A stretch of 43,843 nt of DNA from Candidatus Kapaibacterium sp. (GCA_039923455.1 JBDTCS010000091.1:1-43843), one strand, 5' to 3'. Counted from the stretch's first letter, positions 2,045-36,329 are shown. The notes: generated by a model not told the origin, from the letters alone. Made by a program: numbers and translations.

Positions 2045-3868
2045 ATGTCCTTAGAACATATTCGGAATTTCTGCATCATTGCCCATATTGATCATGGCAA
2101 GTCTACGTTAGCAGATAAACTGCTCCTCGAGACGCACACCATTCAGATGCGGGAAATGACGAATAATCAGGTGCTTGACGATATGGATCTCGAGCAGGAG
2201 CGCGGAATCACGATCAAGCTCCACGCGATCCAGATGAAATACACGCAACCCGCAGAAGACGGCAGCGTTGGAAATGGCATCGAGTACACCTACAACATGG
2301 TCGATACTCCAGGCCACGTCGATTTTACTTATGAAGTATCACGAAGTCTCGCCGCCTGCGAAGGTGCAATTCTCGTTGTCGATGCAACACAAGGCGTCGA
2401 AGCGCAGACGATAGCGAATCTCTATCTTGCCATCGAAGCAGGACTTGAGATCATTCCAGTCCTCAATAAAGTCGATCTGCAATCTGCGATGATCGAAGAA
2501 GTAAGCACGCAGGTTATCGAGTTGCTTGGTTGCAAGCGCGAAGATATTATTCTCGCGAGCGCAAAAGCAGGCATCGGAATTCGCGATGTGCTCGAAGCTG
2601 TCCGTTTGCGGATTCCGCCTCCGAAGGGTGATGTCACGGCGCCGCTAAAGTGTTTGATCTTTGATTCTGTTTTTGATTCGTATCGTGGTTCGATCGTTTA
2701 TCTTCGAGTAATGGAAGGCACGATGCGTGAAGGTGACGAGATCATCTTCATGTATAACAAGTCGAAGTATCGCGTCGAAGAAGTTGGCACACTTCGCATG
2801 GGTCGCGAAAAGAAGGATATGCTCTCGGCTGGTGATGTTGGTTATCTTATCGCCGGCGTCAAGAATGTAAAAGACACTCGCGTCGGAGATACGGTTACTC
2901 ATTTCCGAAATGGCGCCACCGAACCGATCTCCGGATTCAAAGAATCGAAGCCGATGGTTTTCGCCGGACTCTATCCGCAGTCAGCAGAAGATTTTGCAGA
3001 GTTGCGCGACTCGCTCGATCGGTTGTCGCTCAACGATTCATCTCTGGTCTACGAGCCGGAAAGTTCTATCGCGCTTGGTTTCGGATTTCGTTGCGGGTTT
3101 CTTGGTCTCTTGCACATGGAGATCATTCAGGAGCGCTTAGAACGCGAGTTCAATCAGAGTCTTGTTACGACGGTTCCGAACGTAGAGTATCGGGTGACCA
3201 CCACTTCAAATGAGTTGATCGTCGTGGACAATCCATCTTCAATGCCCGAGCCCGGACGTATCGAATACATCGAAGAGCCGTATATCAAGGCGCAAATCAT
3301 CGTGCCAAGCGAGTATGTTGGTGCAATCATGAAGCTTGCGAACGATCGCAGAGGAATTCACAAGACGACAAGCTACCTCGATCCGACGCGTGCCGATCTG
3401 CATTACGAATTTCCGCTCTCCGAGATCATATTCGATTTTTACGATCGCTTGAAATCTATTTCTCGCGGTTATGCATCGCTCGATTATGAGTTTCTCGAGT
3501 ATCGACAGTCCGACATGGTACGATTGGATATTTTGCTCAACGGCGATCCCGTTGATGCATTTAGTACGATCGTCCATCGTGACAAGGCTTTCGATTGGGG
3601 TAAAAAATTATGCACGAAACTTCGTGAGCTAATTCCACGTCACATGTTCGAGGTGGCAATTCAGGCAGCAATCGGGGCGAAGATCATTGCGCGAGAAACA
3701 GTACGTGCGATGCGCAAAGACGTAACGGCGAAGTGCTACGGAGGTGATATCTCTCGTAAGCGCAAACTGCTGGAGAAACAAAAAGAGGGCAAGAAGCGAA
3801 TGAAGCAGGTCGGACGAATCGAAGTGCCGCAGGAGGCATTCCTCGCCGTGTTGCAGATCTCGGATTAA
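2045..3868 (+). CDS. lepA: Elongation factor 4 (LepA) GTPase
   Basis: [48 protein letters not shown] and the C-terminal [25 protein letters not shown]. Confidence 0.99.
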
Positions 3869-3902
3869 TAAACAAGCTACATTTTCGAAAGAGAAAACAA
3901 TC

Positions 3903-5024
3903 ATGGCGGATAATATTGCGCCGAGTGGATCGAACAAGCCCGGTGAATCGAACAAGCCCGGTGAATCGAACAAGCCCGGTGAATCGAACAAGCCCGGTGG
4001 ATCGAACAAGCCCGGTGAATCGAACAAGCCCGGTGGATCGAACAAGGCAAGTGGGGCCAATAGGCCAGGCACGGGAGGCAGATCGCTCGATGAATTGCGA
4101 GCGAAAACCAAGACTACCAAATTCTCGTCCAAGGGCACTAAGGTAACCGGCGAGAAGAAGAAGGAGAGTCTCTGGCGCTCACTCATCGTTGCGCTTTTGA
4201 TTGCGCTCGTAATACGTGCAGTGATGTTCGAGGCATTTCGTATTCCGACGGGTTCGATGAAGAACACGCTGCTCGTTGGCGATTATTTGTTCGTCAATAA
4301 GCTCGCCTACTTTATTCGCTCGCCAAAATATTTTCCGCTGACTACTACGGAGATTCCGTTCCTAAGTATTCCAACCGGTTCACCTAAGCGCAGTGATGTG
4401 ATCGTCTTCGAATATCCTGGAGATCAAGATCTCGTTGTTCCGCGTGAGAAGAAGATCAACTATATCAAACGTTGTATCGGGATTCCGGGTGATACGGTGC
4501 AAATCATCAACAAGCAAGTCTTCGTCAACGGACAGCGCATGGTAAATCCTGCCGGTATGAATTTCCGCGAGTCCGAAGTGCGACCGAAAAACGAGATTGA
4601 CCCGCATATTTTTCCGCAAGGCGCACCGTGGAATAAAGATTGGTACGGACCGATCAGGGTTCCAAAAAAGGGCGATGTGATAAAGATCACAACCGATAAT
4701 ATTCATCAGTGGGAAGTGTTTGTTGCGCGCGAGGGACATAAAGTCGAGATCGGCAACGGCGGAGTGATCCAAATCGACGGCACGGCACAGAGCAACTACA
4801 AAGTCGAGCGTGACTATCTTTGGATGATGGGAGATAATCGTGACGATTCCGAAGATTCGAGGTTTTGGGGATTCGCTCCCGTCGATAACGTTGTCGGCAA
4901 CGCGCTCTTCATTCATTGGTCGATGTACTGGCCGCCATCATCCGGTTATGGTGACGGCTACGATCCCGATGAAGATCAGCACTTCCACATTCGTTGGGGC
5001 CGCATCGGCAATATTATTCGTTGA
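3903..5024 (+). CDS. lepB: Signal peptidase I with an N-terminal (G/E)SNKPG repeat
   Basis: A TM segment followed by the catalytic Ser box IPTGSM, the Lys box YIKRCIG and GDNRDDSEDSRFWG. It follows lepA, which is the canonical synteny. Confidence 0.97.
   Translation: MADNIAPSGSNKPGESNKPGESNKPGESNKPGGSNKPGESNKPGGSNKASGANRPGTGGRSLDELRAKTKTTKFSSKGTKVTGEKKKESLWRSLIVALLIALVIRAVMFEAFRIPTGSMKNTLLVGDYLFVNKLAYFIRSPKYFPLTTTEIPFLSIPTGSPKRSDVIVFEYPGDQDLVVPREKKINYIKRCIGIPGDTVQIINKQVFVNGQRMVNPAGMNFRESEVRPKNEIDPHIFPQGAPWNKDWYGPIRVPKKGDVIKITTDNIHQWEVFVAREGHKVEIGNGGVIQIDGTAQSNYKVERDYLWMMGDNRDDSEDSRFWGFAPVDNVVGNALFIHWSMYWPPSSGYGDGYDPDEDQHFHIRWGRIGNIIR
3925..4068 (+). repeat. 18-bp in-frame tandem repeat GTG(G/A)ATCGAACAAGCCCG in lepB
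   Basis: Six full units start at 3925, 3943, 3961, 3979, 3997 and 4015 and differ only at one G/A position. A partial unit starts at 4033 and a degenerate one at 4051 (GANRPG). Confidence 0.97.
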
Positions 5025-5034
5025 TCGAAAACAC

Positions 5035-6228
5035 GTGAACGTCGAACCAGGCAACCGAGAACCTAAAAGCACTCAACCGTTGAGTGCGTACCTCCACATA
5101 CCCTTCTGTGAAAAGAAGTGTATCTATTGCGATTTCTATTCGATCGAGAATGTATCGCTGCGCGGAGAATTTGTCGAGTTGTTGTTGCAGGAGATCGCGC
5201 TGAAACTTGCGGCGAGTCCATCGCTATCAGGTAGAACACTGGAGACGATCTTCTTCGGCGGCGGAACACCTTCACTGCTCACTCCGGAAGAACTCGCTCG
5301 CATAATAACGGCGCTGAAATCACATTTCACAATTTCGGAAAATGTCGAGTTCACGCTTGAGTGCAATCCCGGTACCGTCACGCTTGAGAAGCTTTCAGGT
5401 TATCGCGCGCTTGGAGTGAATCGATTGAGCTTCGGCGTGCAGTCATTCGATCAAGCCGAACTTGATTTTCTCGGACGGATTCATAACGCAGCCGAAGCGC
5501 GTGAGGCAGTGCGGCTTGCAAGGGCAGCGGGTTTCGAGAACGTCAGCATCGATCTAATCTTTGCGTTGCCCGGACAGAATGAGGCGACACTCGCGAACAC
5601 ACTTCGAGAGGCGATCGCGCTGGGCACCGACCACATCAGCGCATACAACTTGATCGTCGAGCCCGGCACACCACTTTTTCGGCTGGTGCAAATGAACAAG
5701 ATTATCGAACTCGACCCGGATCGCGCGGCGCAGCTTTTTGATCTAACCCAACGTACGCTCGAAGAGGCAGGATTTGAGCAGTATGAGATTTCCAATTATG
5801 CTCGCTCGACTGCGAAACGAGCTAAGCATAATCTTGTTTATTGGGACGGCGCAAAGGAGTATATATCCTTCGGACCATCGGCGCACGAGTTCCTTGAGGG
5901 CCGCCGCGATTGGAACGTCTCATCGCTCGAACAATACAAGCACATGATCGCCTCAGGCTCACTTCCGATTCTGCAATCGGAAACCCTGACGACCGAAGAG
6001 CGCAGAACAGAAGTTGCCTATTTGCAACTTCGCTCGACCGGCATCGATCTCCTGCAGTTTGAACAGGCCTTTGGTGAAGCACTGATGGACTACGATGAGG
6101 TGCACGCGCTGATTGGGGATGAGATGTTGGTATGGAATGACGGGAAGTTGTGTCTTACGCAAAAAGGCTATCGTTTTTGCGACGGTATCGTGACGAGGTT
6201 GTTACGTCAGGCAGAGTTGGTCGGGTAA
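5035..6228 (+). CDS. hemW: Radical SAM heme chaperone HemW (HemN-like)
   Basis: YLHIPFCEKKCIYCDFYS (CxxxCxxC), FGGGTPS, YEISNY and the HemW-type HNLVYW motif. I placed the start at GTG5035, just after the lepB stop, rather than at 4840; the exact start is uncertain. Confidence 0.9.
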   Translation: MNVEPGNREPKSTQPLSAYLHIPFCEKKCIYCDFYSIENVSLRGEFVELLLQEIALKLAASPSLSGRTLETIFFGGGTPSLLTPEELARIITALKSHFTISENVEFTLECNPGTVTLEKLSGYRALGVNRLSFGVQSFDQAELDFLGRIHNAAEAREAVRLARAAGFENVSIDLIFALPGQNEATLANTLREAIALGTDHISAYNLIVEPGTPLFRLVQMNKIIELDPDRAAQLFDLTQRTLEEAGFEQYEISNYARSTAKRAKHNLVYWDGAKEYISFGPSAHEFLEGRRDWNVSSLEQYKHMIASGSLPILQSETLTTEERRTEVAYLQLRSTGIDLLQFEQAFGEALMDYDEVHALIGDEMLVWNDGKLCLTQKGYRFCDGIVTRLLRQAELVG

Positions 6229-6324
6229 TTGGAAGGCTGGAAGGCCGGAAGATTCGGTGGTCGTTCAAGATTGGACTTATTTGGTAGTCCATTTTTTCTT
6301 TTTCAAAGTTCACTGCAATAATTA

Positions 6325-9258
6325 GTGCAAACACGAAAAGTACACTACGGATTTGCGATCGCAAGTTTTCTGATCGCATTGGTGACCTATACTCTCACGA
6401 TGCAACCGACGATCCCGTTCTGGGATTGTGGTGAGTTCGCAGCTGCGGCCTTTAGTCTCGGCGTACCGCATCCACCGGGGGCACCTCTCTGGACGATCAT
6501 CGGCCGGTTGGGTATGCTTATTCCGACATTTACCGATCCGGTCGCTCGATATAATTTTCTCTCGGTTCTCAGTTCTGCGCTGTCGATCCTATTGCTCTAT
6601 CTTACGATCGTTCGTTTGATCAAGATGTTTCGTGGCGCTCCGAAGAACACCGCCGACATGCTAACTACCTTTGGTGGAGCATTTGTTGGCGCGCTTGCCT
6701 ATGCGTTCACCGACAGTTTTTGGTTCAATGCACTTGAGTGCGAAGTGTACGCATTCGGATCGCTCTTTATCTCGCTTGTACCATGGTTAATTCTTGTCTG
6801 GCATGATCACGCTGACGAACCACACAGTGAAAAATATTTGCTCTTGATCGCGTATGTGATCGGCTTATCACTTGGTGTCCATCAACTCGCACTACTTACG
6901 ATATTCCCCGTATGGATGCTCGTCTATTACAAGCGCTGGCCGAAAACAACCGTCAAAGGTTGGTTGCTGATGGTACTCAGCTCCGTAGTTGCTTTCGCTT
7001 TGATCTTCAAGATCGTGCTTTCTGATCTGGTCGACTGGGCAGGCAAGGGCAACGGGATTATCTCGCTCGTTATTCTCGTAGGCGTTATCGTCGGAATTTT
7101 CTGGAGCCAGCAAAAGAAGAAGCCGATGGTTAATCTCGCGCTTTGGGCAACAATTTTGATCTTCCTCGGCTATACGAGTTATACGCTCGTGATGGTGCGT
7201 GCGCATCAAGATCCACCGATGAACCAAGGGCGCCCGACCACATTTGAGAAGCTTGCAGGTTACATTAATCGCGAACAGTACGGTGAAGCGCGCGAACTTC
7301 CGCGTCGCTTGAAAGATCAGGAACGCGATCATGCGAATACTTGGCAGAATTATTCAAGCGATTGGGACTTTTTCATTCGCTATCAAACCAACATGATGTT
7401 CCACCGTTATCTCGGATGGAATTTCATCGGACGCACAACCGACGATCAAGGTGCGGGTGTCGATCTCTCCAAGACGTGGGCACTACCATTCATACTTGGT
7501 GTCTTCGGAATGTTCTGGCACTTCCGTCGAGACCCCAAACGTGCGCTAACTATATTAGGTACGTTTATCATCATGGGATACCTGACCGATTGGTATCAGA
7601 ATCAGCAAGACCCGCAACCTCGAGAGCGAGATTATTTCTATGTCGGCGCATTTTATTTCTTCGCAATGTGGATCGGCATCGGTGCGACCGGAATCATGGA
7701 GTGGGTTCGCAATCGAAAATCCAAAGCTGCGGAATCTGATGCAGCATTGTTTGAGGAAAATCCGAAGACCGGTTTGGTCGGCGGAATATTGATTGGTCTG
7801 CTTGTGCTCGTGCCGATCAACATGTGTATCGGATTGGCAGGGCTCGTGACGGGGCAGCCATTTAGTCAATCTTCGAAATGGGCAGAATACTCACGCGCAA
7901 AGAATTATATTCCGTGGGATTACGCTTATAATATTTTGCAGTCCTGTGATCAAGATGCGATCCTGTTTACCTATGGCGACAACGACACATTCCCGCTTTG
8001 GTGCTTGCAGGATGTCTATGGAATCCGTCGAGATATTCGTATCGTGCAACTCTCGCTCGCGAACCTGCCATACTATGTTAAGCTATTAAAGAACGATCAT
8101 CCCTGGGGTGCCAAAACAATCACGCTGCCAAGCTACTCCAACGAAGTGCTGGATATGCCGGAGCAGGAGGGAATGTATGCCGTCCCGATTCGTCCGAAAG
8201 AGGTCGTGATGAACCTCGATGCGAAGTCGGTGCAATGGATCATGGGTGATTCGAGTGCGAGTGCAGCAGTGATGCATTGGAGTGCAAATCCACGTCAGCC
8301 ATCGGAACAGTTGATAGTAGATATCATTGAGAATCATCTGAAGGATCGTCCGATCTATTTCTCGGCGACTGTCGCGGAAGGTTCGTACGTTGGGCTCGGT
8401 AAATTTCTTGTGCATGAAGGAATGGCCGCTCGTGTGACACCTATCGAGCAAGCGCCCGATCAAACCCAAGCGGGATTAGGTGGCTCGATTAACGAAAAAC
8501 GCTATCTGCGATCGGTGTATCACATTCCTTCGGAGCCGCATCTTGGTCCTGATCGTGGAATGATACTTCGAACCTACAACGATCCGGATTCGCATCATTC
8601 GGTGCTGGATGATCGGTACTCGATGTCCTATCGGATTGAATATATTCGCCTCGCGAATTATTATCTTGCTCGCGGCAACAAACCGGAAGCAAGTCGCGCG
8701 CTGGATACACTGGATGCACGCATCCCCAACAAACTTGTACCGCTGGAGTATCCGTATTCCTCTATACTTGTCGATCTCTACGATCGTGTAGGTAATTACA
8801 AAAAATCCGCACAGTATGCGAGATATACCGCCGATCTGATTCGCGAAGTCATGAAAGATCCGAATTGGCGCGACAACGATCCGTATGCAAAGCAAATGCG
8901 CGTTGACTTCACATTCGGCGATATGCTATTACGCGCCGGAGAGTACGATTCGGCTGCAGCGCAATTTGAAAGCTTACGCGCGAGTGCTTCGCCGCAAGAG
9001 GCTGGATATTTTGCTGTAAAAGGAGCGGAAGCTATGGCGATGAAGTTAGAATCGCAAGGCAAAAAGAAGGAAGCTTATGATGGATATCACGTGCTTCTGA
9101 CACAGATCGCAAGCCAAGGAGGCGATGCCGGAAGAGAGCTACCCGAAGTACTCACGAGACACGACGCGCTGGCCAAGATGTTGGGCTTACCGCTTTTCGA
9201 TCCTGCGAGTGCAAAGGCGTTAGCACCGAAGGACTCGGCACGGATCTCACAGAAATAG
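6325..9258 (+). CDS. DUF2723 / TMEM260-like GT-C membrane glycosyltransferase, paralog 1
   Basis: N-terminal TM followed by WDCGEF, VPHPPGAPL, ECEVY, GVHQL, YINREQYG, QPRERDYFY and GDNDTFPLW. Multi-TM core with a soluble, helical (TPR-like) C-terminal region. Confidence 0.85.
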   Translation: MQTRKVHYGFAIASFLIALVTYTLTMQPTIPFWDCGEFAAAAFSLGVPHPPGAPLWTIIGRLGMLIPTFTDPVARYNFLSVLSSALSILLLYLTIVRLIKMFRGAPKNTADMLTTFGGAFVGALAYAFTDSFWFNALECEVYAFGSLFISLVPWLILVWHDHADEPHSEKYLLLIAYVIGLSLGVHQLALLTIFPVWMLVYYKRWPKTTVKGWLLMVLSSVVAFALIFKIVLSDLVDWAGKGNGIISLVILVGVIVGIFWSQQKKKPMVNLALWATILIFLGYTSYTLVMVRAHQDPPMNQGRPTTFEKLAGYINREQYGEARELPRRLKDQERDHANTWQNYSSDWDFFIRYQTNMMFHRYLGWNFIGRTTDDQGAGVDLSKTWALPFILGVFGMFWHFRRDPKRALTILGTFIIMGYLTDWYQNQQDPQPRERDYFYVGAFYFFAMWIGIGATGIMEWVRNRKSKAAESDAALFEENPKTGLVGGILIGLLVLVPINMCIGLAGLVTGQPFSQSSKWAEYSRAKNYIPWDYAYNILQSCDQDAILFTYGDNDTFPLWCLQDVYGIRRDIRIVQLSLANLPYYVKLLKNDHPWGAKTITLPSYSNEVLDMPEQEGMYAVPIRPKEVVMNLDAKSVQWIMGDSSASAAVMHWSANPRQPSEQLIVDIIENHLKDRPIYFSATVAEGSYVGLGKFLVHEGMAARVTPIEQAPDQTQAGLGGSINEKRYLRSVYHIPSEPHLGPDRGMILRTYNDPDSHHSVLDDRYSMSYRIEYIRLANYYLARGNKPEASRALDTLDARIPNKLVPLEYPYSSILVDLYDRVGNYKKSAQYARYTADLIREVMKDPNWRDNDPYAKQMRVDFTFGDMLLRAGEYDSAAAQFESLRASASPQEAGYFAVKGAEAMAMKLESQGKKKEAYDGYHVLLTQIASQGGDAGRELPEVLTRHDALAKMLGLPLFDPASAKALAPKDSARISQK

Positions 9259-9449
9259 GAGGCGTCATTCTGGTACTAAACAGCGACTGAGCTGTTCTGG
9301 AGTCGTATTTTGCAGAATGGAGTCGCTTTTGGCCAACTTTTACTGTGTTAAGTGGCACCCGAACTGCGCCTTTTGCGGTTCAAGTGGAGCAGATTTTTGA
9401 AACGGACGAAAGTTTGAAACAGAGGAAAGCAAGTACTTAAATTCGAGAA

Positions 9450-12400
9450 ATGGAATTCAAAAGGATACATTACGGATTTGCGGCAGCGAGTTTTTTTATT
9501 GCGCTGCTGACATACGGACTTACGATGCAGCCGACGATCCCGTTCTGGGATTGCGGCGAGTTTGCGGCCGCGGCTATCGGAATGGGAGTACCGCATCCGC
9601 CGGGTGCTCCACTCTGGACGATCGTTGGCCGACTCGGTATGTTGATTCCGATCTTTACCGACATGACGGCTCGGTATAATTTCCTTTCGGTCTTGTCCTC
9701 AGCTGCGAGTATTTTGCTCCTGTATCTTACGATCGTTCGTTTGATCACCTTGTGGCGTGGCGCTCCGAAGAGCATGGCTGATGTACTCGTACATTTTGGT
9801 GGTGCGTTCATTGGTGCACTTGCCTACACGTTTACTGATAGCTTCTGGTTCAATGCGCTCGAGTGCGAAGTCTATGCATTCGGTTCGCTCTTTATTTCAC
9901 TGGTGCCGTGGTTGATTCTCGTCTGGTATGATCACGCAGACGAACCACACAGCGAAAAATATTTGCTCTTGATCGCGTATGTGATCGGCTTGTCGCTCGG
10001 TGTTCACCAGTTAGCGCTCTTGACACTCTTCCCGGTTTTCATGCTCGTTTATTACAAGCGCTGGCCGAAAACGACTGTCAAAGGTTGGATACTGATGGTA
10101 ATCTCCTCGGTGGTTGCGTTTTGGTTCATCTTTAAGATCGTTCTTTCTGATCTGGTGGATTGGGCCGGAGGTGCAGGATGGATGGCCTCGTTTCTCATAC
10201 TCGCCGGTATTATCGGTGGTATCATTTATACGCATCAGAAGAAGAAAGCGATCTGGAATGTCGCTCTCTGGGGCGCGATACTGATTTTCACCGGATATAC
10301 AACCTATACTGTTATCATGGTTCGTGCGGCACAGAATCCGCCGATGAATCAGCATCACGCTTCTACCTTTAAGATTCTAGCCGAGTACATCAACCGTGAA
10401 CAATACGGTGAGGCGAAGGAGATGCCACGCCGTCTCGAAGAGCAGAACCGAGATCACTCACACGACGCGACATTCAACAATTATTCGAGCGATGGTGATT
10501 TCTTCTGGCGTTATCAGACGGGTCACATGTTCACGAGATATCTCATGTGGAATTTTGTCGGTCGCGCAAACGACGAACAAGATGCCGGTGTAGATTATTC
10601 AAAGACGTGGGCCTTGCCGTTCTTGCTCGGTCTCTTCGGCCTATTCTGGCATTTCAAACGTGATCCGAAACGAGCTCTCACACTCGTTGGCACTTTTATT
10701 ATTATGGGATTCCTGACGGCGTGGTACCAGAATCAACAGGATCCGCAGCCGCGAGAACGTGATTATTTTTACGTAGGTGCATTCTATATCTACGCGATGT
10801 GGCTCGGAATCGGTGCTACAGGAATACTCGAATTTATACGATCGCGATTTAGCAAGAAAGAAGAGGGGACGATCGTGGCGGGTGAAGAAAGCGATGTCGT
10901 TCCGATCCTAACAGGTCGCGGCAACGCGGGAGTGATCTTCGGTGGAGTTGCACTTTTACTATTGATCATTCCGATCAATATGTGCATTGGTCTTGCCGGC
11001 TTGGCTACCGGTCAACCCTTTAGCAAGGCTTCGAAGTGGGCGGAATATTCCAGGCGTCACAATTATGTACCGTACGAATATGCGTATAACTTTTTGCAGA
11101 GTTGCGACAAGAATGCGATCCTATTCACGGCAGGAGATAATGACACATTTCCGCTTTGGTGTTTGCAAGATGTCTATGGTATCCGTCGAGATATTCGCAT
11201 TGTGAATCTCTCACTCGGCAACATGTCGTGGTACATCAAACAGCTGAAGCATGAACGGCCTTGGGATGCGGCCGACGTGATTGATTTGCCATCGTTTACT
11301 GATGAGAAGATGTCGAACCCGGATGAATCCGAAGCCGGAATTCGAGCACTCGGCGGACCTGCCGAAAATGTCTCCTTTGATGTGAGCGCACAAACGATGC
11401 AGCAGTTTAATGGTGTAGCGGCACCTGGTCGGATGGATTGGAAATACACCGGGCAGTTTCCACAAGAGGGTGGGCAATACGTCTTCACGATCGCCGATCA
11501 GCTTGTGAAAGATATCGTCCGTTATAATATAGAAAAACGGCCGATCTATTTTGCATCGCTCGTTCCACCCTCGTATATGGCTGGTCTTGATCCGTATTTG
11601 GTGTATGAAGGTATGGCCGCGAGAGTCACACCAACACACCAACCGGGCAACAGTCGCAGTATGGATGTCTCCGTCAATGAGCCACTGTATTCTGCGATGG
11701 CCTATAACCTACCAAAATCTCCGAGCCTCACACCGGCGCGTGGAATGGTTCTCGAAACATACCGCGACCCTGAAGCAAATCTTAGCGCACAGGACCAGCG
11801 TTATGCACAGAGTTACTTCTATATGTATTTCCGACTTGCGAATCACTTCATCAAGGTTGGCAAGCCTGCCGAAGCGCGTCGCGCACTCGATACGTGCGAA
11901 GCAAGACTCTCGCCCAGCACACTTGGACCTGATTATCGTTATGCTGATCTCTTTGCACAACTCTATGATGCAGCCGGAGATTCTATCAAATCGGTCAAGT
12001 ATATGAAGATGGCGGTCGCAGATACGAAGCAGCCATCAGCAGATGCAGGAGATCAATCCAACGGTAGCGCTGCAAGTATTCAATTCCGGCTTGCGGAAGT
12101 CTATCTCAAGAGCGGCATGCTCGATTCGGCTCGCGCACTTTATTTGAAGTTGCAAGGCGAAGTGCAGGGTGGCGATAGACAAGTGATGGATTTCAAAATA
12201 CTCGAGGTCGATGCGCGAATTTTGGATAAGAAGGGCGACAAGAAAGGCGCCTATGATAAGTACGTGCAACTTGCGAAAGCCTTTGCGCCACTCGCTTCAA
12301 GCGGACTTGCACCGGAGTATGCAACCCTGGACGCTCGTCGAGCTGCACTCGCGAAAGAGCTAGGCATCGTAGATGCGGGACTCGTAGTCGTGCCGCCGCA

Positions 12401-12497
12401 ATCGCAGCAGATGGAAATTGGACAGCCACAAGAAGCGCCACCGGCCGGCACACCAGGCGGCCCACCACAAGCGCCTAAAAAATCGAAGAGCAAATAA
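9450..12497 (+). CDS. DUF2723 / TMEM260-like GT-C membrane glycosyltransferase, paralog 2
   Basis: Same motif set as paralog 1 (WDCGEF, HPPGAPL, QPRERDYFY, GDNDTFPLW). The C-terminal domain is divergent and ends in a Pro/Gln-rich tail (PKKSKSK). Confidence 0.85.
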   Translation: MEFKRIHYGFAAASFFIALLTYGLTMQPTIPFWDCGEFAAAAIGMGVPHPPGAPLWTIVGRLGMLIPIFTDMTARYNFLSVLSSAASILLLYLTIVRLITLWRGAPKSMADVLVHFGGAFIGALAYTFTDSFWFNALECEVYAFGSLFISLVPWLILVWYDHADEPHSEKYLLLIAYVIGLSLGVHQLALLTLFPVFMLVYYKRWPKTTVKGWILMVISSVVAFWFIFKIVLSDLVDWAGGAGWMASFLILAGIIGGIIYTHQKKKAIWNVALWGAILIFTGYTTYTVIMVRAAQNPPMNQHHASTFKILAEYINREQYGEAKEMPRRLEEQNRDHSHDATFNNYSSDGDFFWRYQTGHMFTRYLMWNFVGRANDEQDAGVDYSKTWALPFLLGLFGLFWHFKRDPKRALTLVGTFIIMGFLTAWYQNQQDPQPRERDYFYVGAFYIYAMWLGIGATGILEFIRSRFSKKEEGTIVAGEESDVVPILTGRGNAGVIFGGVALLLLIIPINMCIGLAGLATGQPFSKASKWAEYSRRHNYVPYEYAYNFLQSCDKNAILFTAGDNDTFPLWCLQDVYGIRRDIRIVNLSLGNMSWYIKQLKHERPWDAADVIDLPSFTDEKMSNPDESEAGIRALGGPAENVSFDVSAQTMQQFNGVAAPGRMDWKYTGQFPQEGGQYVFTIADQLVKDIVRYNIEKRPIYFASLVPPSYMAGLDPYLVYEGMAARVTPTHQPGNSRSMDVSVNEPLYSAMAYNLPKSPSLTPARGMVLETYRDPEANLSAQDQRYAQSYFYMYFRLANHFIKVGKPAEARRALDTCEARLSPSTLGPDYRYADLFAQLYDAAGDSIKSVKYMKMAVADTKQPSADAGDQSNGSAASIQFRLAEVYLKSGMLDSARALYLKLQGEVQGGDRQVMDFKILEVDARILDKKGDKKGAYDKYVQLAKAFAPLASSGLAPEYATLDARRAALAKELGIVDAGLVVVPPQSQQMEIGQPQEAPPAGTPGGPPQAPKKSKSK

Positions 12498-12514
12498 ACA
12501 CCGAACAACATACT

Positions 12515-13252
12515 GTGTTTCTTTCTCTAATTATTCCGGCTTACAATGAGGCGGGACGTATCGTCCCGTCTTTGCATGCGGCCTTCGAGTATCTCGCGAA
12601 GGTCCCGTACACCGTTGAGATTCTTGTCGTCGATGATGGCTCGAAGGATGACACTGTTGCGGTCGTCCAAGAAGTTTTTCGAAATATGCCTGCGAATCTT
12701 CCGCACGTGATCGGTCGCGCGATTCCGCTTGGTATGAACGCTGGCAAGGGTGCGGCGGTCGGGAAGGGTATGCTCGAAGCTCGCGGTGCAATTCGAATTT
12801 TTACGGATGCAGATTTTTCGACTCCGATCAAAGAGATCGAGAAGGTGATTCCGCTTATTGAGAGTGGTGCATTCGATGTGGTGATCGGAAGTCGTGCTGC
12901 AGAAAATCGCTCGCTCGTCAAAAAGCATCAGCCTTGGTATCGCGAGATGATGGGCCGGTTCTTTAACATCCTTGTGCAAGCCCTTATCTTTCGCGGTATC
13001 AAAGATACGCAATGCGGCTTCAAGGGATTCAGCGGCAAAGCCGCTGACCATTTGTTCAGCAAGCAAAAGGTACTCGGATTCTCTTTTGATGTCGAGATTC
13101 TCTATCTCGCACGCAAAGCTGATTACAAAGTCAAGGAGATCGCGATTGAGTGGTACAATGACGAACGCTCCACCGTCGGAGCTGTCGGTGACTCTGCCCG
13201 AATGTTCTTCGAGTTGCTTCGAATCAAGCGAATTCATAAAGGGGACGCGTAG
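12515..13252 (+). CDS. GT2 polyprenyl/dolichyl-phosphate hexosyltransferase (ALG5/DPG-synthase-like)
   Basis: IIPAYNEA, VDDGSKD, GKGAAV..GML.ARG, the DxD motif FTDADFSTPI, DTQCGFK and FSFDVEIL. Single domain of 245 aa. The sugar specificity cannot be determined from the sequence. Confidence 0.88.
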   Translation: MFLSLIIPAYNEAGRIVPSLHAAFEYLAKVPYTVEILVVDDGSKDDTVAVVQEVFRNMPANLPHVIGRAIPLGMNAGKGAAVGKGMLEARGAIRIFTDADFSTPIKEIEKVIPLIESGAFDVVIGSRAAENRSLVKKHQPWYREMMGRFFNILVQALIFRGIKDTQCGFKGFSGKAADHLFSKQKVLGFSFDVEILYLARKADYKVKEIAIEWYNDERSTVGAVGDSARMFFELLRIKRIHKGDA

Positions 13253-13296
13253 CCCGCTAATTCCCCGGCTCACACACCTGGTTGCGTTTACAAGAA

Positions 13297-15630
13297 ATGT
13301 CCAAAGCCCAACTCAAACGAACTCAGCCCGCACACCCGAAGTCGCTCGATAGACGCCCGAGCGCAGAGAAGCCGATTCCGGAGATTAATGTTTGGATCGC
13401 CGTCGGCATCTTCGCCGCGCTTGCGCTGATCTTTCATTCTTCGATATTAATGGGCGGAAAATTCCTGTGGGAGGATTTCGTTGAGCAGGAATTTCCATTT
13501 AGAACATTTGCAGCTACAAGCCTCGCGCAAGGTGTGTTGCCACATTGGAATCCGTACATCTTCGGTGGTATGCCTTTTATGGCGGATATTCAGACTGCGT
13601 TCTGGTATCCGACAAATCTTTTGCAAACGCTTTTCGTGTCCGATGGACATCTTTCGGCCGGTGTAATGCAATGGTTCATCCTGATGCACTATGCTGTTGC
13701 CGGAGCGGGGATGTATTTATTTGCAAAGCGAATTCTTGGTGTCGATGATTGGTCGGCGCTATTTGCTGGAATTGCGTATGCGTTCGGTGGCTTCATTGTT
13801 GCGCAGGCGATACATCAGATGATCGTATATCAGATGGCACTCTTTCCGCTTGTCGCGTTAGCATTTATCGCTGGGATCGATAATTGGCGGTACTCGATCG
13901 TGAGCGGAATCTTGCTTGGAGTGATGTATCTCGCCGGTCACCCACAGAGCACGTTGTTCTTTACATTCTTACTTGCGATGCTCGCGATTTATGAACTCAC
14001 ATTCCGAACGATGCGCAAGGAGCGGATGGATGCGGGAGCGATCATTCGAGCCGCAATACCAGTAATTATCGCGATCGGGTTATTTGCGATTCAACTTTTG
14101 CCTTCTCAAGAACTTGCGGGACTCTCGCGGCGTGAGGTGATGACCTATGAGAAGTCGGTCGATGGTTCACTGTCGTTCGGCAATTTACTCACGCTTGTAT
14201 TGCCCAGACTTTTTGGCGTGACGGACGGTGCGCACGAAGCGAAAGTCCCGTTTTGGAACGGAGCCTATTATCTTTCGTGGGAGACGGCGATCTACATCGG
14301 AATATTTCCACTCTTCTTCGGCATTCTCGCGGCAATGCAGAATTGGAAACGCAAATATGTTCCGTTCTTTGCCTGCATGAGTCTCTTCGCGATTCTCTTT
14401 GCTCTTGGCGATCACTTTTTTATCTATCGAATATTCTTTAATCTGCCGCTTTTTGATAAGCTTCGCACTCCGGCACGAATGTCAATGGTGTTCTCATTTT
14501 CGATGTGTGCACTGTCTGCGATCGGGTTTCGAAGTATATTCGAGCGAACAAAGAAAGAGGCAATCGGAACGGGCGCTTTGGTTGGTGCAGGCGCGATAAT
14601 TCTGGTTTGGATATATGCGCTGGTTGGTGGCTTGCATGCGAGTAGTTTTTTGCCGGGTGTAGCTGCCGAGGCGGATGCTTCGATAGGATGGGCTGCGGGA
14701 CTTGCAACATTTCCGGTGCTTGCACTTGCGGCGTATGTGCTCGCTCGGAAATTTTCCGATCTGCGTGGTATGATACTCGCGATTCCCGTTATCGCAGTGA
14801 CGCTCATTGAGTTGTTTACTTATGGAATGGGTCTCAATGCGGTCGCAGATAATCCTGCCGATCTATTTCGTGAGCAGCCCCAACTGATTGATCAGGTCAA
14901 GCAAGATCAAGCGAAAGAGATCACTCGCGCTCGAACGCGTATGGGAAGCCAGATACTCGTAAAGCGCAATCAAGGAGCATACGACCGCATTCAACTCATC
15001 GAGGGATACAATCCGCTTGTGCTGCAGCGTGTTTCACCGGAGACTTTTCCGGAAGAGCAAGCGGATCTGATGAATATTAAGTGGTCGATCATTCAACACG
15101 GACAGCAACCGGATTTTGGTGCGCGGTCAACCTATCTTCCCCGCGTCAAGCTCTACTACAAAACGGAAGTGCGATCCGACACCATGGCGCGCGTCTTGCT
15201 CAAGACTGATTCACTCTTCGACTACCGCAATACGATCTTGATCGAGGAGCAACCTCCTACAGCCGTTGGTCCGCTCGATGCAGCCGGCATAGCGAGCATC
15301 ACACATTACAGCGAGAACGAGATTACTGTGAAAGTAAAAACTGCTGCGCCTGCTATGCTTTTTCTTTCAGAGGTTTATTATCCGGCATGGAACGCCTATA
15401 TCGATGGCGCGCCTTCGAAGATTTATCGTGCTTTTACATCGCTTCGTGCGGTCGAGGTTCCGGCTGGGGAACACACGGTTGTTTTGAAATATGAATCGAA
15501 AGCATTCGCAACCGGAAGTATGATCTCGCTTGCGACGCTTTTGCTAAGCATCGGTGGATTCGTTTTCTTCATGTTGCGTGAAAAGAAAGCGACTCCTGAG
15601 CCAGAACCCGCTGCGCCTGAACAGGCTTGA
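13297..15630 (+). CDS. YfhO-family polytopic membrane protein (putative GT-C)
   Basis: WNPYIFGGMPF..D, YP, GHPQ, YIG, LRTPAR, and the C-terminal SEVYYPAWNAYIDG...AVEVPAGEHTVVLKY followed by a last TM helix. ATG13297 is preferred over TTG13282. Confidence 0.82.
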   Translation: MSKAQLKRTQPAHPKSLDRRPSAEKPIPEINVWIAVGIFAALALIFHSSILMGGKFLWEDFVEQEFPFRTFAATSLAQGVLPHWNPYIFGGMPFMADIQTAFWYPTNLLQTLFVSDGHLSAGVMQWFILMHYAVAGAGMYLFAKRILGVDDWSALFAGIAYAFGGFIVAQAIHQMIVYQMALFPLVALAFIAGIDNWRYSIVSGILLGVMYLAGHPQSTLFFTFLLAMLAIYELTFRTMRKERMDAGAIIRAAIPVIIAIGLFAIQLLPSQELAGLSRREVMTYEKSVDGSLSFGNLLTLVLPRLFGVTDGAHEAKVPFWNGAYYLSWETAIYIGIFPLFFGILAAMQNWKRKYVPFFACMSLFAILFALGDHFFIYRIFFNLPLFDKLRTPARMSMVFSFSMCALSAIGFRSIFERTKKEAIGTGALVGAGAIILVWIYALVGGLHASSFLPGVAAEADASIGWAAGLATFPVLALAAYVLARKFSDLRGMILAIPVIAVTLIELFTYGMGLNAVADNPADLFREQPQLIDQVKQDQAKEITRARTRMGSQILVKRNQGAYDRIQLIEGYNPLVLQRVSPETFPEEQADLMNIKWSIIQHGQQPDFGARSTYLPRVKLYYKTEVRSDTMARVLLKTDSLFDYRNTILIEEQPPTAVGPLDAAGIASITHYSENEITVKVKTAAPAMLFLSEVYYPAWNAYIDGAPSKIYRAFTSLRAVEVPAGEHTVVLKYESKAFATGSMISLATLLLSIGGFVFFMLREKKATPEPEPAAPEQA

Positions 15631-16748
15631 CACAATTATTGAAATCCGCTGAGAAAATTCTGATCATCGCATTGCCCGGTATCGGTGACGCACTGCTGGC
15701 GACGCCGATGATCGAGTTGTTGCGCAGAGCCAAACCGCAAGCCGAGCTGCACGTCCTCGTGATGTTCAAGGCAACGAAGGAAATGTTCGAGGCCGATCCG
15801 TTCGTGGACAAAGTGCACTACTATGATCTGATCGGCGGCAGCAAACTCTCTGCGATCAAAGCAGTTCTCGCACTGCGCCGCGAGGCATTTGATATCTCCA
15901 TAAATATTTATCCCCAGAATCGGCGCGAGTATAATGCAATCGCTTTGATGATCGGAGCTAAGAAGCGCGTTGGCGTTCTCTATCGTCGGCTCGGAACGCA
16001 GAACCTGAATTGGCTCAACACCGACACGATCACCGAAGACGATAGCTTGCATTGTGTGGAAGAAAATGTGAAGCTGCTCACGTGCATCGGTATCAACCAT
16101 GAGCTAACCGAGGCAACACTTCCGCCACTCCGACTAAATCTATCGAGCGATCATTCGCAGTTTGCGAACAATTGGATATCAGAGCATGGCCTCGATGACA
16201 AAAGGCTTTTGATCGGAATGCATGCCGGTACCGCGTTATTCAAGAATCACATTAAGCGCAGATGGGCACCGGAAAAATTTGCAGCGCTCGCAAAACAATT
16301 GACTGCAGATCTCGGAGCAACCGTTTTACTCTTCGGTGGCCCGGATGATATTTCCGCCAACGAGATTATACTTCGTCAGGCAGGGGATAGTGTCACATTC
16401 GTAAAGGCGAGCAATCTTCTCGACTCGGTCGCTGTGATGAAAAAGCTGAACCTCTTCATCTCGAACGACTCGTCGCTCATGCATATCGCTGGTGCACTTG
16501 CGCTTCCGACTGTCGCGATATTTGGCCCGACCAACGAGACCTATGTACATCCCTGGAAGACTCAGTACGAGATCGTCCAGACCGGCATCGACTGCCGCCC
16601 GTGCTTTGTCTATTCCCCAAAACCGCTAACTTGCTATCGCGAGAATCCCGCCGAGCATTTTATGTGCATTCGGGATATTGAGGTTGGGGATGTGCTCTCG
16701 GCGGCTAATAAGCTGCTCGGGAATGACTTGATCACGATCTCACTATAG
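15627..16748 (+). CDS. Glycosyltransferase family 9 (ADP-heptose:LPS heptosyltransferase-like)
   Basis: GIGDALLATP, KRRWAPEKF, SNDSSLMHIA, AIFGPT and CRPC...C...CIRDI. Its TTG start overlaps the TGA stop of the YfhO-like gene. Confidence 0.9.
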   Translation: MTQLLKSAEKILIIALPGIGDALLATPMIELLRRAKPQAELHVLVMFKATKEMFEADPFVDKVHYYDLIGGSKLSAIKAVLALRREAFDISINIYPQNRREYNAIALMIGAKKRVGVLYRRLGTQNLNWLNTDTITEDDSLHCVEENVKLLTCIGINHELTEATLPPLRLNLSSDHSQFANNWISEHGLDDKRLLIGMHAGTALFKNHIKRRWAPEKFAALAKQLTADLGATVLLFGGPDDISANEIILRQAGDSVTFVKASNLLDSVAVMKKLNLFISNDSSLMHIAGALALPTVAIFGPTNETYVHPWKTQYEIVQTGIDCRPCFVYSPKPLTCYRENPAEHFMCIRDIEVGDVLSAANKLLGNDLITISL

Positions 16749-18667: not shown

Positions 18668-19165
18668 ATGATCGACGCAGATATCATAGTAGAAGACCCG
18701 GATGTATTCTTAGGATACATGCGAGAAGCAAAACGCCCGATATTTCATAACTCGAATATTTTCTTTCGAGATATTCAATACGGTGTTCGAGATTATTTCG
18801 AAGATCGCGAAGGCAAAACGATCTCGTCCAAAGAAGCGATTCGTATTGCAAACGATCTGACCCGTTCATACGAGCGGATGGGAGTGTTGCGGAAAGTGAA
18901 CTCGAATGGGTATCTTTTGATCTATCCGGACATGCTCACTCCAAAGGGTGGAACAATCGAGGTGCTAACAGGTGCGACTATCGCACTGCCACCTGCAGCC
19001 GCAGCGCCTGCACCTGTAAAGGCAGCCGCACCAGCCGTTGCAAGCGCACCGAAGCCAATCGCAGCGCCACCTGTAGCAGCTGCAACCGCATCAGCGACAA
19101 GTGCACCGGCAACCGGAGCTATGCCGGCAGGAGCGAAGGCTCCGCCACCATGGCTTAAGAAGTAG
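18668..19165 (+). CDS. Uncharacterised protein between iscS and iscU (globular ~95 aa plus Pro/Ala-rich tail)
   Basis: ATG start, fills the intergenic gap on the operon strand, has an aromatic-rich motif PIFHNSNIFFRDIQYGV and a low-complexity tail ending PPPWLKK. Confidence 0.85.
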   Translation: MIDADIIVEDPDVFLGYMREAKRPIFHNSNIFFRDIQYGVRDYFEDREGKTISSKEAIRIANDLTRSYERMGVLRKVNSNGYLLIYPDMLTPKGGTIEVLTGATIALPPAAAAPAPVKAAAPAVASAPKPIAAPPVAAATASATSAPATGAMPAGAKAPPPWLKK

Positions 19166-20771: not shown

Positions 20772-20821
20772 CAAACGTGCCTCCTTTTGCACTCAAACAC
20801 AAACCCCACACGAGACCGATT

Positions 20822-21406
20822 GTGACGTCCAAGTACATACAAGCATCCCTAAAAGAGGCAGCAGATTGCCTGGAAACTTTCCTGAAAGATCCCGCAACGA
20901 CTTTGCAGATCGAGGCATTCGTCGAACTGTTACAATCTACCTTTGAATCGGGACACAAAGTTTATTCTGCGGGCAATGGTGGAAGCCACTGTGACGCAAT
21001 GCATTTCGCAGAAGAGTGGACCGGCCGCTATCGCAAAGACCGAGCGCCCGTCGCTGCGCTCGCGTTCAGTGATGTTTCGCACATGACTTGCACCTCAAAC
21101 GATTACGGTTTTGAGCACGTATTTGAGCGTATGATACAAGCCTTCGGAGGTTCGGATGATGTGTTCCTCGCGATAACAACTTCGGGCAATAGTAAGAATC
21201 TGATCCTTGCAGCAGAAGCCGCGAAAGCGAAGGGTATGAAAGTTGTCGGTCTCCTTGGAAAAAGCGGTGGTGCCCTTAAAGATCTTTGTGATATCGCAAT
21301 CATCGTACCAGGTGCTACCAGCGACCGCATTCAGGAGTTGCATATTAAGATTATTCATATCGCGATCGAGTGCACAGAGCGTCTGATGTTTCCGGAGCTC
21401 TACTGA
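20822..21406 (+). CDS. gmhA: D-sedoheptulose-7-phosphate isomerase
   Basis: GNGGSHCDAMHFAEE.TGRY, NDYGF, TSGNSKN and DRIQELHIKIIH. The start is GTG20822 or GTG20777. Confidence 0.93.
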   Translation: MTSKYIQASLKEAADCLETFLKDPATTLQIEAFVELLQSTFESGHKVYSAGNGGSHCDAMHFAEEWTGRYRKDRAPVAALAFSDVSHMTCTSNDYGFEHVFERMIQAFGGSDDVFLAITTSGNSKNLILAAEAAKAKGMKVVGLLGKSGGALKDLCDIAIIVPGATSDRIQELHIKIIHIAIECTERLMFPELY

Positions 21407-29835: not shown

Positions 29836-29882
29836 GATGGTGTGTTGGATAGGCGGGGTGTGTTGATTAACTTGTTGTGTTG

Positions 29883-32800: not shown

Positions 32801-32993
32801 GAATGGAAAAGTTTACTCAGCAATTTTGCTCGATGAATCCGGAAGAGAGATTCGCAACGTACGATCGGGTCGCGTTACGGAATCAGTAGAGGAATGGAAA
32901 CTCGATGTAAACCAAATTGCAAGCGGACATTATTTTCTTGAGATCCGACTCGGAGCTTTATCCGCAAGACAAGCGATCATCGTGAATCACTGA
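29883..32993 (+). CDS. Paralogous Asp-box beta-propeller protein with two ASH-like Ig domains and a T9SS CTD
   Basis: Colinear with the upstream gene (FLGP.NQSG, NKTDNFPSLK, MGTREGF, YHEYT.MN.H, VDWYGQ, PDTLYVGT, TYGRGI). CTD CSPNP...SGHYFLEI. ATG29883 is preferred. Confidence 0.85.
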   Translation: MLRSIGIRGGIVLVVCLRVSLALGQVTEPFGEREWMTGELARRQAISLQQESGITPDQMLEAWRARNSDQKFSTTATGLPTFSWEFLGPENQSGHVQALAAIPGSMEILAGASGGGIWKFSKDSVWRNKTDNFPSLKISTAAASSAQKGLYAMGTREGFVYLSTDSGTSWAVAAKAPGANIMSLAFSPQAARVIYAATDAGLMRSTNLGGSWTSIGAGRARSVILDPTNPASIYYAKEATEWPNSSVNLMHSNDAGATFTPIYHFSTGYYSDVLFSMCKAHPLVMWAGSDSSHTYVRSEDGGVTWQQCVTAPYLDSYNNGFWSFTADPVNPLVAIAGGPPLFRTTDGGKSWARIDSTVHADHHTFIFLGGSRAALGCDGGVYVTEDYMARMPIWRYQSTGLITLEAYNVAGSPDGQDIVITGCQDNGYDKYEADTKKWRVVGGDGFATLYSSKDPNIFYHEYTDMNLHRALDGFTWWSEKVMNGLPTTADFYTGISGAPVDWYGQGITMDPQNSDVLYAGTDSLFKTVDGGDNWKLASTAQLTTGGSITAITVSPIDSMRIFVGSDAGMVSVTSNGGSTWFTVPKAQFAGQQGRIYSIAADPKNVNRAYLSMQVGGSGTPVYATTDGGYTWKARTQGLPKATTSRLLIDTDRPDTLYVGTSLGIYVSLDAGTSWSLMPGLPTVEIRDLEWHVLNTATNGPTRCMLVGTYGRGILRGTPVSPITHPDTLRFASTLVSTTRDSTFAAVITNAGLATQSFESVSIHGLDSARFLILAGGLPFTLQPAESHAVALHFAPKAVAGYHASLEVTQTGTAAPIRIAVEGSGVIPALRMAPAIIDFGSIALSQKKDSSTIITTSGLPTERDSIHISAITIVGVNANAFSITSKNLVFALATGESKQVSVRYTPISFGSEHALLIISNDAIKGLDTVQLMGAGVTSGVSATADLSSPDLQIQCSPNPMRASGIIRMKSSPSMNGKVYSAILLDESGREIRNVRSGRVTESVEEWKLDVNQIASGHYFLEIRLGALSARQAIIVNH

Positions 32994-36187: not shown

Positions 36188-36329
36188 GAATTTGCAATGG
36201 ATGGTAAGCTGCACGGGTCATGCAAGGCGTCGAAGTCGCACAATGCATAAAGATCACGAGCAAAGGTAACCCTCGAATGCATCCAATCCGTTCTCAGTAG
36301 ACTATCCTGCCAGTCGTGTCAGGTGGTGC

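Follow-up and report, generated by a model that had tools for sequence, protein, structure and literature searches.

What is modified by the glycosyltransferases that are encoded side by side at one locus of Candidatus Kapaibacterium sp., and could they include the enzyme that places the first sugar in the general O-glycosylation system of the Bacteroidota? The locus lies in a stretch of 43,843 nucleotides (nt; GCA_039923455.1 JBDTCS010000091.1:1-43843), the whole of which is called the window here, and it comprises five open reading frames (ORFs) that are all on the plus strand and span positions 6325–16748. The first two, DUFa (6325–9258, 977 aa) and DUFb (9450–12497, 1015 aa), encode predicted long-form DUF2723/TMEM260-like GT-C glycosyltransferases. 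These are followed by the genes for a small, soluble GT2 enzyme (12515–13252, 245 aa), a YfhO-like GT-C protein (13297–15630, 777 aa from an ATG codon, with a TTG at 13282 as a possible start), and a heptosyltransferase-like GT-B enzyme of family GT9 (15627–16748, 373 aa). All five products were found to score above the Pfam gathering thresholds, with PF11028 for DUFa and DUFb (E = 3.4e-59 and 3.4e-57; 200.1 and 193.5 bits, cut-off 24.2), PF00535 for the GT2 (E = 1.9e-24), PF09586 for the YfhO-like protein (E = 2.9e-14; 52.9 bits against a cut-off of 28.5), and PF01075 for the GT9 (E = 9.9e-29). DUFa and DUFb are separated by 191 nt, DUFb and the GT2 gene by 17 nt, and the GT2 and YfhO-like genes by 44 nt (29 nt from the alternative TTG), and the last two ORFs overlap by 4 nt; DUFb is probably the first gene of an operon with the three genes that follow it. 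The initial annotation of the window described the same five co-oriented genes with this spacing of the last four, and read them as one protein glycosylation system of the TMEM260 type. That reading stands for the homology to TMEM260, the fold, the likeness of the GT2, and the sequon, and it falls for the idea of a conserved five-gene system. We propose that long-form DUF2723 proteins initiate general O-glycosylation, a proposal to which we give a little less than an even chance.

The accessible part of a 2025 review (PMC12871550) states that the core-glycan flippase, the oligosaccharyltransferase (OTase), and the ligase of the general system "remain undiscovered", in keeping with the earlier remark that its protein-targeting transferase is not firmly assigned. 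The same text gives the glycan's reducing end as hexose (mannose), deoxyhexose, and hexuronic acid, likens the pathway to eukaryotic O-mannosylation, and advises a search for homologues of the eukaryotic machinery. It also sets out a two-step model in which the core glycan is assembled on undecaprenyl (pyro)phosphate, Und-P(P), and two periplasmic transfer enzymes are needed. The available portion of a second paper (PMC8729774) likewise treats the O-OTase as unknown and reports that a waaL mutant gave no shift of a Porphyromonas gingivalis glycoprotein. A literature search found no paper assigning a function to a bacterial DUF2723 protein; its sole DUF2723 match was the 2023 paper on TMEM260, and judged by title or abstract none of the further TMEM260 papers that were listed dealt with homologues in bacteria.

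By sequence comparison, DUFa and DUFb are true homologues of human TMEM260, whose activity as a protein O-mannosyltransferase is proven. A single-sequence phmmer search with DUFa matched TMEM260 (PDB 9rql, 9rqm, and 9rqn) with an E-value of 4.7e-16, and a 56-sequence profile (A1) matched the 9RQL chain with an E-value of 2e-33 in two stretches. The first covers the GT-C core (profile 21–230, TMEM260 29–226), and the second covers the last transmembrane (TM) helix and the start of the luminal domain (profile 449–578, TMEM260 356–480). The first periplasmic loop of DUFa (6421–6480) carries the WDCGE motif, with D34 and E37, and the HPPG motif, with H49. In both the phmmer and the profile alignments D34 falls on TMEM260 D52 and H49 on H67. 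A third residue, TMEM260 D441, falls on the first Asp of a GDNDT motif, which is D552 in DUFa (motif at aa 551–555, 7975–7989) and D563 in DUFb (aa 562–566); this assignment comes from the profile alignment and not from a superposition. The WDCGEF and HPPG motifs that the initial annotation had pointed out in both proteins were confirmed, with WDCGE at aa 33–37 and HPPG at aa 49–52 in each, and the check that it had put forward, whether the WDCGE Asp aligns with the catalytic Asp of TMEM260, was made on the sequence and profile alignments, where the counterpart is the donor-binding D52.

These residues are retained in nearly all of the long-form proteins surveyed. The first Asp of GDNDT is invariant in 56/56 rows of A1. 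A survey of 139 long-form ORFs from 130 loci found WDxxE...HxPG in 138, with an HPAG variant in the remaining one, GD[NS]D[TS] in 137, and RE[RK]DY in 138. According to the accessible text of a report on TMEM260 (bioRxiv 10.64898/2026.03.17.711096), D52 and H67 contact the donor mannose, D441 of the Rossmann-like domain is the catalytic base and its D441A variant is inactive, and the TPR domain binds the acceptor peptide in an extended form; the part of PMC10214176 that was available is a second source for the roles of these residues. The DUF2723 proteins are very probably GT-C transferases that depend on a lipid-phosphate sugar, and we consider it somewhat more likely than not that their acceptors are proteins.

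The AlphaFold2 model of DUFa (pLDDT 90.8, pTM 0.90) has about 13 TM helices, an alpha/beta domain (residues 546–704), and TPR-like helices (760–964). The best PDB matches found by Foldseek were all GT-C enzymes, namely PglB (1.4e-5), AglB, ArnT, STT3, Pmt1/2, DPY19, and ALG9/12, and the tail was matched to TPR proteins. Thus, the GT-C fold that had been expected for DUF2723 is supported by both the model and the matches. The TM-scores to the oligosaccharyltransferases (OSTs) were low, from 0.3 to 0.45. The Foldseek library ends at 2026-04-08 and predates the TMEM260 entries, and the comparison with 9RQL is a sequence and profile alignment. In the model, the order of the parts is that of TMEM260, with a GT-C membrane core, a Rossmann-like alpha/beta domain, and TPR-like helices. 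DUFa and DUFb thus resemble TMEM260 in the PF11028 core, in the equivalents of D52, H67, and D441, and in the order of domains. They differ in length (977–1015 aa rather than 707 aa), in the number of TM helices (about 13 rather than 11), and in the carrier lipid, which would be undecaprenyl where that of TMEM260 is dolichyl. The PMT/POMT and TMTC enzymes also share the GT-C fold and an acidic first-loop residue, and TMTC proteins have a TPR domain that binds the acceptor; Pmt1/2 and Pmt4 are among the Foldseek matches to DUFa. Unlike these families, with which there is no significant sequence match, the DUF2723 proteins would hold the catalytic base in a soluble domain, as in TMEM260, and not in loop 1.

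The acceptor appears to differ from that of TMEM260. The human IPT sequon, Px6Px3Px2GGx3T, does not occur in any of 2687 host-genome ORF products, and the short form P..GG...[ST] is not above shuffles in the host proteome; the TPR region is also divergent. Since the IPT sequon is not found in the host, any protein target of DUFa and DUFb should be a different one. The sequon of the Bacteroidota general system was counted in the 2687 ORFs of at least 100 aa, which were sorted with a simple and crude heuristic based on signal peptides and hydrophobicity. The observed/expected ratio for D[ST][AILVMT] was determined to be 2.12 (2274 against 1071) for 647 signal-peptide-like proteins, 1.58 for 555 membrane proteins, and 1.16 for 1485 cytoplasmic proteins, and eight control patterns gave ratios between 0.80 and 1.16 across the three classes. 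The median per-protein ratio was 1.82 for the signal-peptide-like class and 0.98 for the cytoplasmic class. Among all 20 residues at position –1, Asp alone is enriched. At position +1 enrichment was found for L (2.84), I (2.26), V (2.17), T (1.93), C (1.91), A (1.59), and M (1.49), and depletion for P, Q, D, E, H, F, and Y. Because this pattern closely matches the published sequon, we infer, within the limits of the crude gene and signal-peptide calls, that the general O-glycosylation system operates in this lineage. The relevance of the D-(S/T)-(A/I/L/V/M/T) system, suggested at the outset, is thus borne out by the 2.12-fold over-representation in exported proteins. The likeness to the general system consists of this shared sequon preference and of DUF2723 in every sampled genome of the phylum (below); the difference is that the window has no lfg-type locus, and the tie to DUF2723 is one that we draw.

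Two very large secreted proteins encoded further along the window (26086–29835 and 29877–32993, plus strand), with Sortilin/BNR and Ig-like (HYDIN/ASH/Cep192) domains, contain 18 and 10 such sequons against 5.8 and 4.3 expected, and from their sequences are likely glycoproteins. A third protein of this kind (33407–36214, minus strand) has only 2. The long-form enzymes themselves were considered as a further source of evidence, as at least one sequon is present in the last 60 aa of 56 of the 139, where about 20 would be expected. This was rejected as specific evidence, since the ratio over their whole periplasmic part is 1.51, near the 1.58 of other membrane proteins.

The distribution of DUF2723 was determined in 201 Bacteroidota genomes that are at least 90% complete and represent 109 genera, with 14 named genomes as controls. 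PF11028 was detected in 201/201 genomes and 109/109 genera, mostly as one copy of 880–1200 aa, and in a single control, Bacteroides thetaiotaomicron. Gene order was compared in 30 loci from 25 relatives, and the comparison also took in 20 phylum-level and 80 named loci. Among named loci, the long form is present in Kapaibacterium, Ignavibacteria, Chlorobiaceae, Balneolales/Rhodothermales, and a number of Bacteroidia orders, and Neomarinimicrobiota, Calditrichaceae, and KSB1 have it as well.

Both paralogs included, the copies from the family to which the window belongs (f1) all fall into one clade of a 60-row tree, with a support of 100, which argues that DUFa and DUFb arose by a duplication within f1. 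The two GT-C paralogs of the initial annotation thus go back to a duplication inside this family. By its gene order DUFa holds the ancestral position next to lepA, lepB, and hemW. The arrangement lepA-lepB-hemW-DUF2723 is seen again in another class (L037) and was found in 7 of the 80 named loci (Ignavibacteriales, Kapaibacterium, and other Bacteroidota metagenome-assembled genomes); an eighth, from a Chlorobiaceae metagenome-assembled genome and cut at the contig start, shows lepB-hemW-DUF2723 only, and hemW adjoins DUF2723 in 10/80. DUFb is a family-specific duplicate that has been joined to the GT2 gene. Tandem pairs of long-form DUF2723 genes were also seen in other lineages (L030, L033, L043, L078, L092, and L119), and the tree places the duplications at L030, L033, and L043 as independent of the one in the window. 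By analogy with Pmt1-Pmt2, a division of acceptor specificity or the formation of heteromers might lie behind such repeated duplication.

The GT2 has DDGS and DAD motifs and is without membrane helices. Its best PDB matches are the Pyrococcus DPMS 5mlz (5.6e-12), ArnC, and GtrB, and its NCBIfam matches to PpgS, ArnC, PgfS, and AglJ are weak and all far below the cut-offs. It is a probable polyprenyl-phosphate sugar synthase, though of a sugar that its sequence does not name, and its likeness to DPMS, ArnC, and GtrB is in line with the original description as a lipid-phosphate-sugar synthase. A second small GT2 in the host genome, 36% identical to the first, overlaps a gene for a 545-aa GT-C protein of the PMT_2 family (G000, contig C219; L141:2540–4935, minus strand), a pair that supports the notion that small GT2 synthases adjoin the GT-C enzymes that use their products. 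The same adjacency is found in the three-component systems GtrA/GtrB/Gtr-type, CsbB/YfhO/GtcA, ArnC/ArnT/ArnEF, and Streptococcus mutans PgfS/PgfM1/PgfM2, and there is NCBIfam similarity to PgfS, ArnC, and PgfM1/M2, below cut-off for the GT2. In contrast to those systems, no GtrA-family flippase was found in the host genome, the GT2 lacks membrane helices, two to three GT-C enzymes flank the single GT2, and a GT9 is attached. A 248-aa ORF antisense to the GT2 gene (12527–13273, minus strand) looks like a shadow ORF.

These results are best explained if DUFa and DUFb are GT-C glycosyltransferases of the TMEM260 kind that face the periplasm. Judged by homology, a polyprenyl-phosphate hexose, probably undecaprenyl-phosphate-mannose, would be bound in the membrane domain through the Asp of WDxxE and the His of HPPG, and the periplasmic Rossmann-like domain would supply the catalytic base from the first Asp of GDNDT. 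The TPR-like helices would hold an extended exported polypeptide that has not yet folded, and a Ser or Thr of it would receive the sugar. The long-form DUF2723 protein would then initiate general O-glycosylation at the sequon D-(S/T)-(A/I/L/V/M/T), with DUFa in the housekeeping role. A family-specific accessory branch would be made up of DUFb, the GT2, and the YfhO-like/GT9 pair, and its task would be to add another sugar, to act on other targets, or to lengthen the glycan. What is observed of this is the homology, the conserved residues, the fold, the distribution, the sequon enrichment, and the gene linkage; the donor, the acceptor protein, the tie to the sequon, and the parts given to the YfhO-like protein and the GT9 are inferred. 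Taken whole, we regard this explanation as about evenly balanced between right and wrong.

Linkage to sugar metabolism, with a GT2 gene directly after DUFb in f1 and a gmd gene after DUF2723 in other families, speaks for it. A number of observations weigh against it, some of them also from the gene neighbourhood. The GT2 gene lies directly 3' of DUF2723 in 12 f1 loci (12 of 14 f1 genomes, the other two loci being cut by contig ends), and the YfhO-like and GT9 genes then follow in 10 of these 12. Outside f1, GT2 and YfhO-like genes were found beside DUF2723 in 0 of the 11 class-level loci. No homologue of the YfhO-like or GT9 gene was found within about 8 kb of DUF2723 at any of the 20 phylum-level loci, and the sole GT2 match there is weak (24% identity) and about 6 kb away (L050). 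The five genes are thus not a conserved module across the Fibrobacterota-Chlorobiota-Bacteroidota (FCB) group, and the check for a conserved DUF2723-GT2-YfhO neighbourhood across it that the initial annotation had called for gives a negative answer, as the GT2 and YfhO-like genes were not found next to DUF2723 in 11/11 class-level and 20/20 phylum-level loci. From gene order, the most fitting reading of the cluster is a union in f1 of two tight pairs, DUFb-GT2 and YfhO-like-GT9, beside an ancestral DUFa. A GT9 orthologue is beside or near DUF2723 in 3/11 class-level and 3/80 named loci. Within the class, 4 of the 11 families other than f1 (L024, L030, L032, and L033) have DUF2723 followed in the same direction by gmd (GDP-mannose 4,6-dehydratase, above the TIGR01472 cut-off) and then by a GT4 gene. 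This order ties DUF2723 to deoxyhexose synthesis in those families, and the host genome has no gmd orthologue. Linked cytoplasmic GT9, GT4, and gmd genes would suit the assembly of a lipid-linked oligosaccharide or of lipopolysaccharide (LPS).

Other points lie on the same side. The evidence for the bacterial members consists of homology and correlation. In the modelled structure the nearest neighbours are oligosaccharyltransferases and not PMTs, in a library that predates the TMEM260 entries. With a poorly conserved TPR region and no IPT sequon in the host proteome, the acceptor specificity of TMEM260 cannot be transferred to these enzymes. No GtrA-family flippase (PF04138) was matched in the window or in the whole 99%-complete host genome, as the initial annotation had cautioned for the window. 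We know of no report of this type of glycosylation in Neomarinimicrobiota, Calditrichaceae, or KSB1, where the long form also occurs. Finally, YfhO is nearly as universal as DUF2723, being present in at least 199/201 genomes, and in the available text of a July 2026 preprint (10.64898/2026.07.27.740950) YfhO is named as the OTase on in silico grounds and predicted to be essential in several Bacteroidales.

The strongest alternative follows from this last point: YfhO would be the transferase of the general system, and DUF2723 would serve a narrower class of proteins or a later periplasmic step such as the addition of a second sugar or the ligation of the outer glycan. As far as its accessible part goes, the preprint also matches YfhO to Pmt4 with HHpred and finds wide conservation. 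PF09586 matched 191/201 Bacteroidota genomes, of which 153 reach the gathering score. The model covers only the last ~80 residues of most Bacteroidota YfhO proteins, and when the 10 genomes that PF09586 had missed were searched with a protein query, 8 proved to have a homologue, which gives the count above. The apparent difference between 191/201 for YfhO and 201/201 for DUF2723, tried as a discriminator, was thus an artefact of a weak model, and distribution does not separate the two families. Since 8 of 10 apparent absences proved false, published absences of YfhO that rest on the PF09586 cut-off may be overstated. This bears on the absence of YfhO from the O-glycosylated P. gingivalis in the available text of the preprint (10.64898/2026.07.27.740950), which would count against YfhO as the general transferase but was called with the PF09586 gathering score, which misses homologues.

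The YfhO-like protein of the window is, by sequence, an accessory paralog. Its orthologues were found in 18/18 f1 genomes at 54–64% identity and in 4 of 12 other families at 35–38%, and a second host YfhO of about 900 aa, on contig C135, is the type present in all relatives. The AlphaFold2 model is of moderate quality (pLDDT 64), and its Foldseek matches are ArnT, EmbA/B, and STT3. A common origin of YfhO and DUF2723 was tried and rejected, as hhalign gave a probability of 21%, which is no detectable relation. The YfhO-like proteins PgfM1/M2 of S. mutans belong to a protein glycosylation system, and the NCBIfam names place them there as well, which speaks for a YfhO-type transferase acting on proteins. 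However, YfhO has no homologue that is a demonstrated protein O-mannosyltransferase with matched catalytic residues, and DUF2723 matches TMEM260 at three; it is this homology to a proven enzyme, with three functional residues kept, that makes us favour DUF2723 for the first step. As the available text of PMC12871550 has two periplasmic transfer enzymes in its model, both families may take part. If both act in a single pathway, the presence of duplicates of both at this locus would be accounted for; duplicates of the two GT-C families around one GT2 fit such a joint pathway but do not prove it. That YfhO is the general transferase and DUF2723 the secondary one is, in our judgement, unlikely, at perhaps half the likelihood of the explanation given above.

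It is also conceivable that the cluster decorates an envelope molecule other than protein, such as the LPS core, lipid A, or a different glycolipid or polymer, after the pattern of ArnC/ArnT or CsbB/YfhO, with the GT9 as a core heptosyltransferase. GT9 is the family of the LPS heptosyltransferases, and characterised YfhO enzymes glycosylate teichoic acids. The GT9 of the window scored 116.4 against a cut-off of 170.2 for TIGR02201 and 113.4 against 134.6 for TIGR02195, and its best PDB match is 3tov (2.4e-26); by sequence it is a PF01075 member at the family level only, without an equivalog-level heptosyltransferase match. A GmhA-like sedoheptulose-7-phosphate isomerase gene (20777–21406, plus strand; NF001628 227.7 bits, cut-off 265) lies between hscB and hscA about 4 kb 3' of the cluster, a placement that is kept in the f1 relatives L005, L014, L016, and L019. 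Its product may feed the GT9 enzymes, of which the host genome has about 8 paralogs, and for these two reasons heptose chemistry and a role in LPS are possible for the GT9. The GT9 orthologues near DUF2723 in a few loci, and a GT2 that is as close to ArnC as to DPMS, could be read in the same way. Yet the GT9 gene is tied to the YfhO-like gene and not to DUF2723: the two are adjacent in 18/18 f1 genomes by whole-genome searches, also in G011 and G014, where DUFb-GT2 is located elsewhere, its orthologue is missing from 8 of 12 other families, and DUF2723 is universal where this GT9 is not. The full TMEM260 architecture, with an acceptor-activating Asp in a Rossmann-like domain and TPR-like helices, is also kept. 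We consider a purely non-protein role improbable. Least probable is that DUF2723 is an O-oligosaccharyltransferase that moves an undecaprenyl-pyrophosphate-linked core glycan en bloc onto the sequon, for although PglB, AglB, and STT3 are its best Foldseek neighbours and share its plan of about 13 TM helices and a C-terminal periplasmic part, cytoplasmic GT4, GT9, and gmd genes adjoin it in several lineages, and the accessible text of PMC12871550 assumes a core glycan assembled on Und-P(P), the residues that touch dolichyl-phosphate mannose in TMEM260 are conserved, the tightest neighbour is a probable polyprenyl-monophosphate sugar synthase, and the structural similarity to OSTs is low.

The remainder of the window provides context. 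The names of the closest database proteins point to a Kapaibacteria-like member of the Bacteroidota. Upstream of the cluster is a histidine kinase gene, and lepA, lepB (signal peptidase I), and hemW, identified by Pfam and NCBIfam, occupy 2045–6228 (plus strand); their synteny 5' of DUFa is conserved but does not imply a functional link to DUFa. The longest hemW ORF (4840–6228, plus strand) overlaps lepB (3903–5024) by 185 nt, and the true start is probably further downstream because the HemW model match begins at residue 81. A hairpin followed by a T-run is located at 6272–6291, between hemW and DUFa. Promoter-like sites (14 in the window, 12.6 in shuffles) and terminator-like sites (17 and 11.2) were uninformative, and an Rfam search of the window matched no family. 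Downstream are an Rrf2 regulator, isc/hsc genes, and the large secreted proteins. A 165-aa ORF between iscS and iscU (18668–19165, plus strand) is kept by relatives at 47–61% identity and has no Pfam or NCBIfam match.

A very large number of exported proteins carry general O-glycosylation in this phylum, which is dominant in the human gut. Truncation of the inner core is reported in the July 2026 preprint not to be tolerated, and the accessible parts of PMC12871550 and of the July 2026 preprint (10.64898/2026.07.27.740950) indicate that the attaching enzyme has been unknown for more than 15 years. A candidate at the level of a family, with three named catalytic residues, makes the question testable by point mutants and an in vitro assay. 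We hold it as a tentative view, somewhat short of an even chance, that long-form DUF2723 is the O-mannosyltransferase missing from the first step, a bacterial counterpart of TMEM260 that would modify exported proteins while they are unfolded and work in series with YfhO, in a pathway that would reach past the classical Bacteroidetes to the Kapaibacteria, Ignavibacteria, and Chlorobia, and perhaps the Neomarinimicrobiota, Calditrichota, and KSB1. The co-duplicated GT-C families around one probable lipid-sugar synthase in f1 would then be a footprint of the partnership between DUF2723 and YfhO. If this is true, the human disease gene TMEM260 gains a bacterial model, and sequon-directed O-mannosylation would be common to animals and the FCB bacteria.

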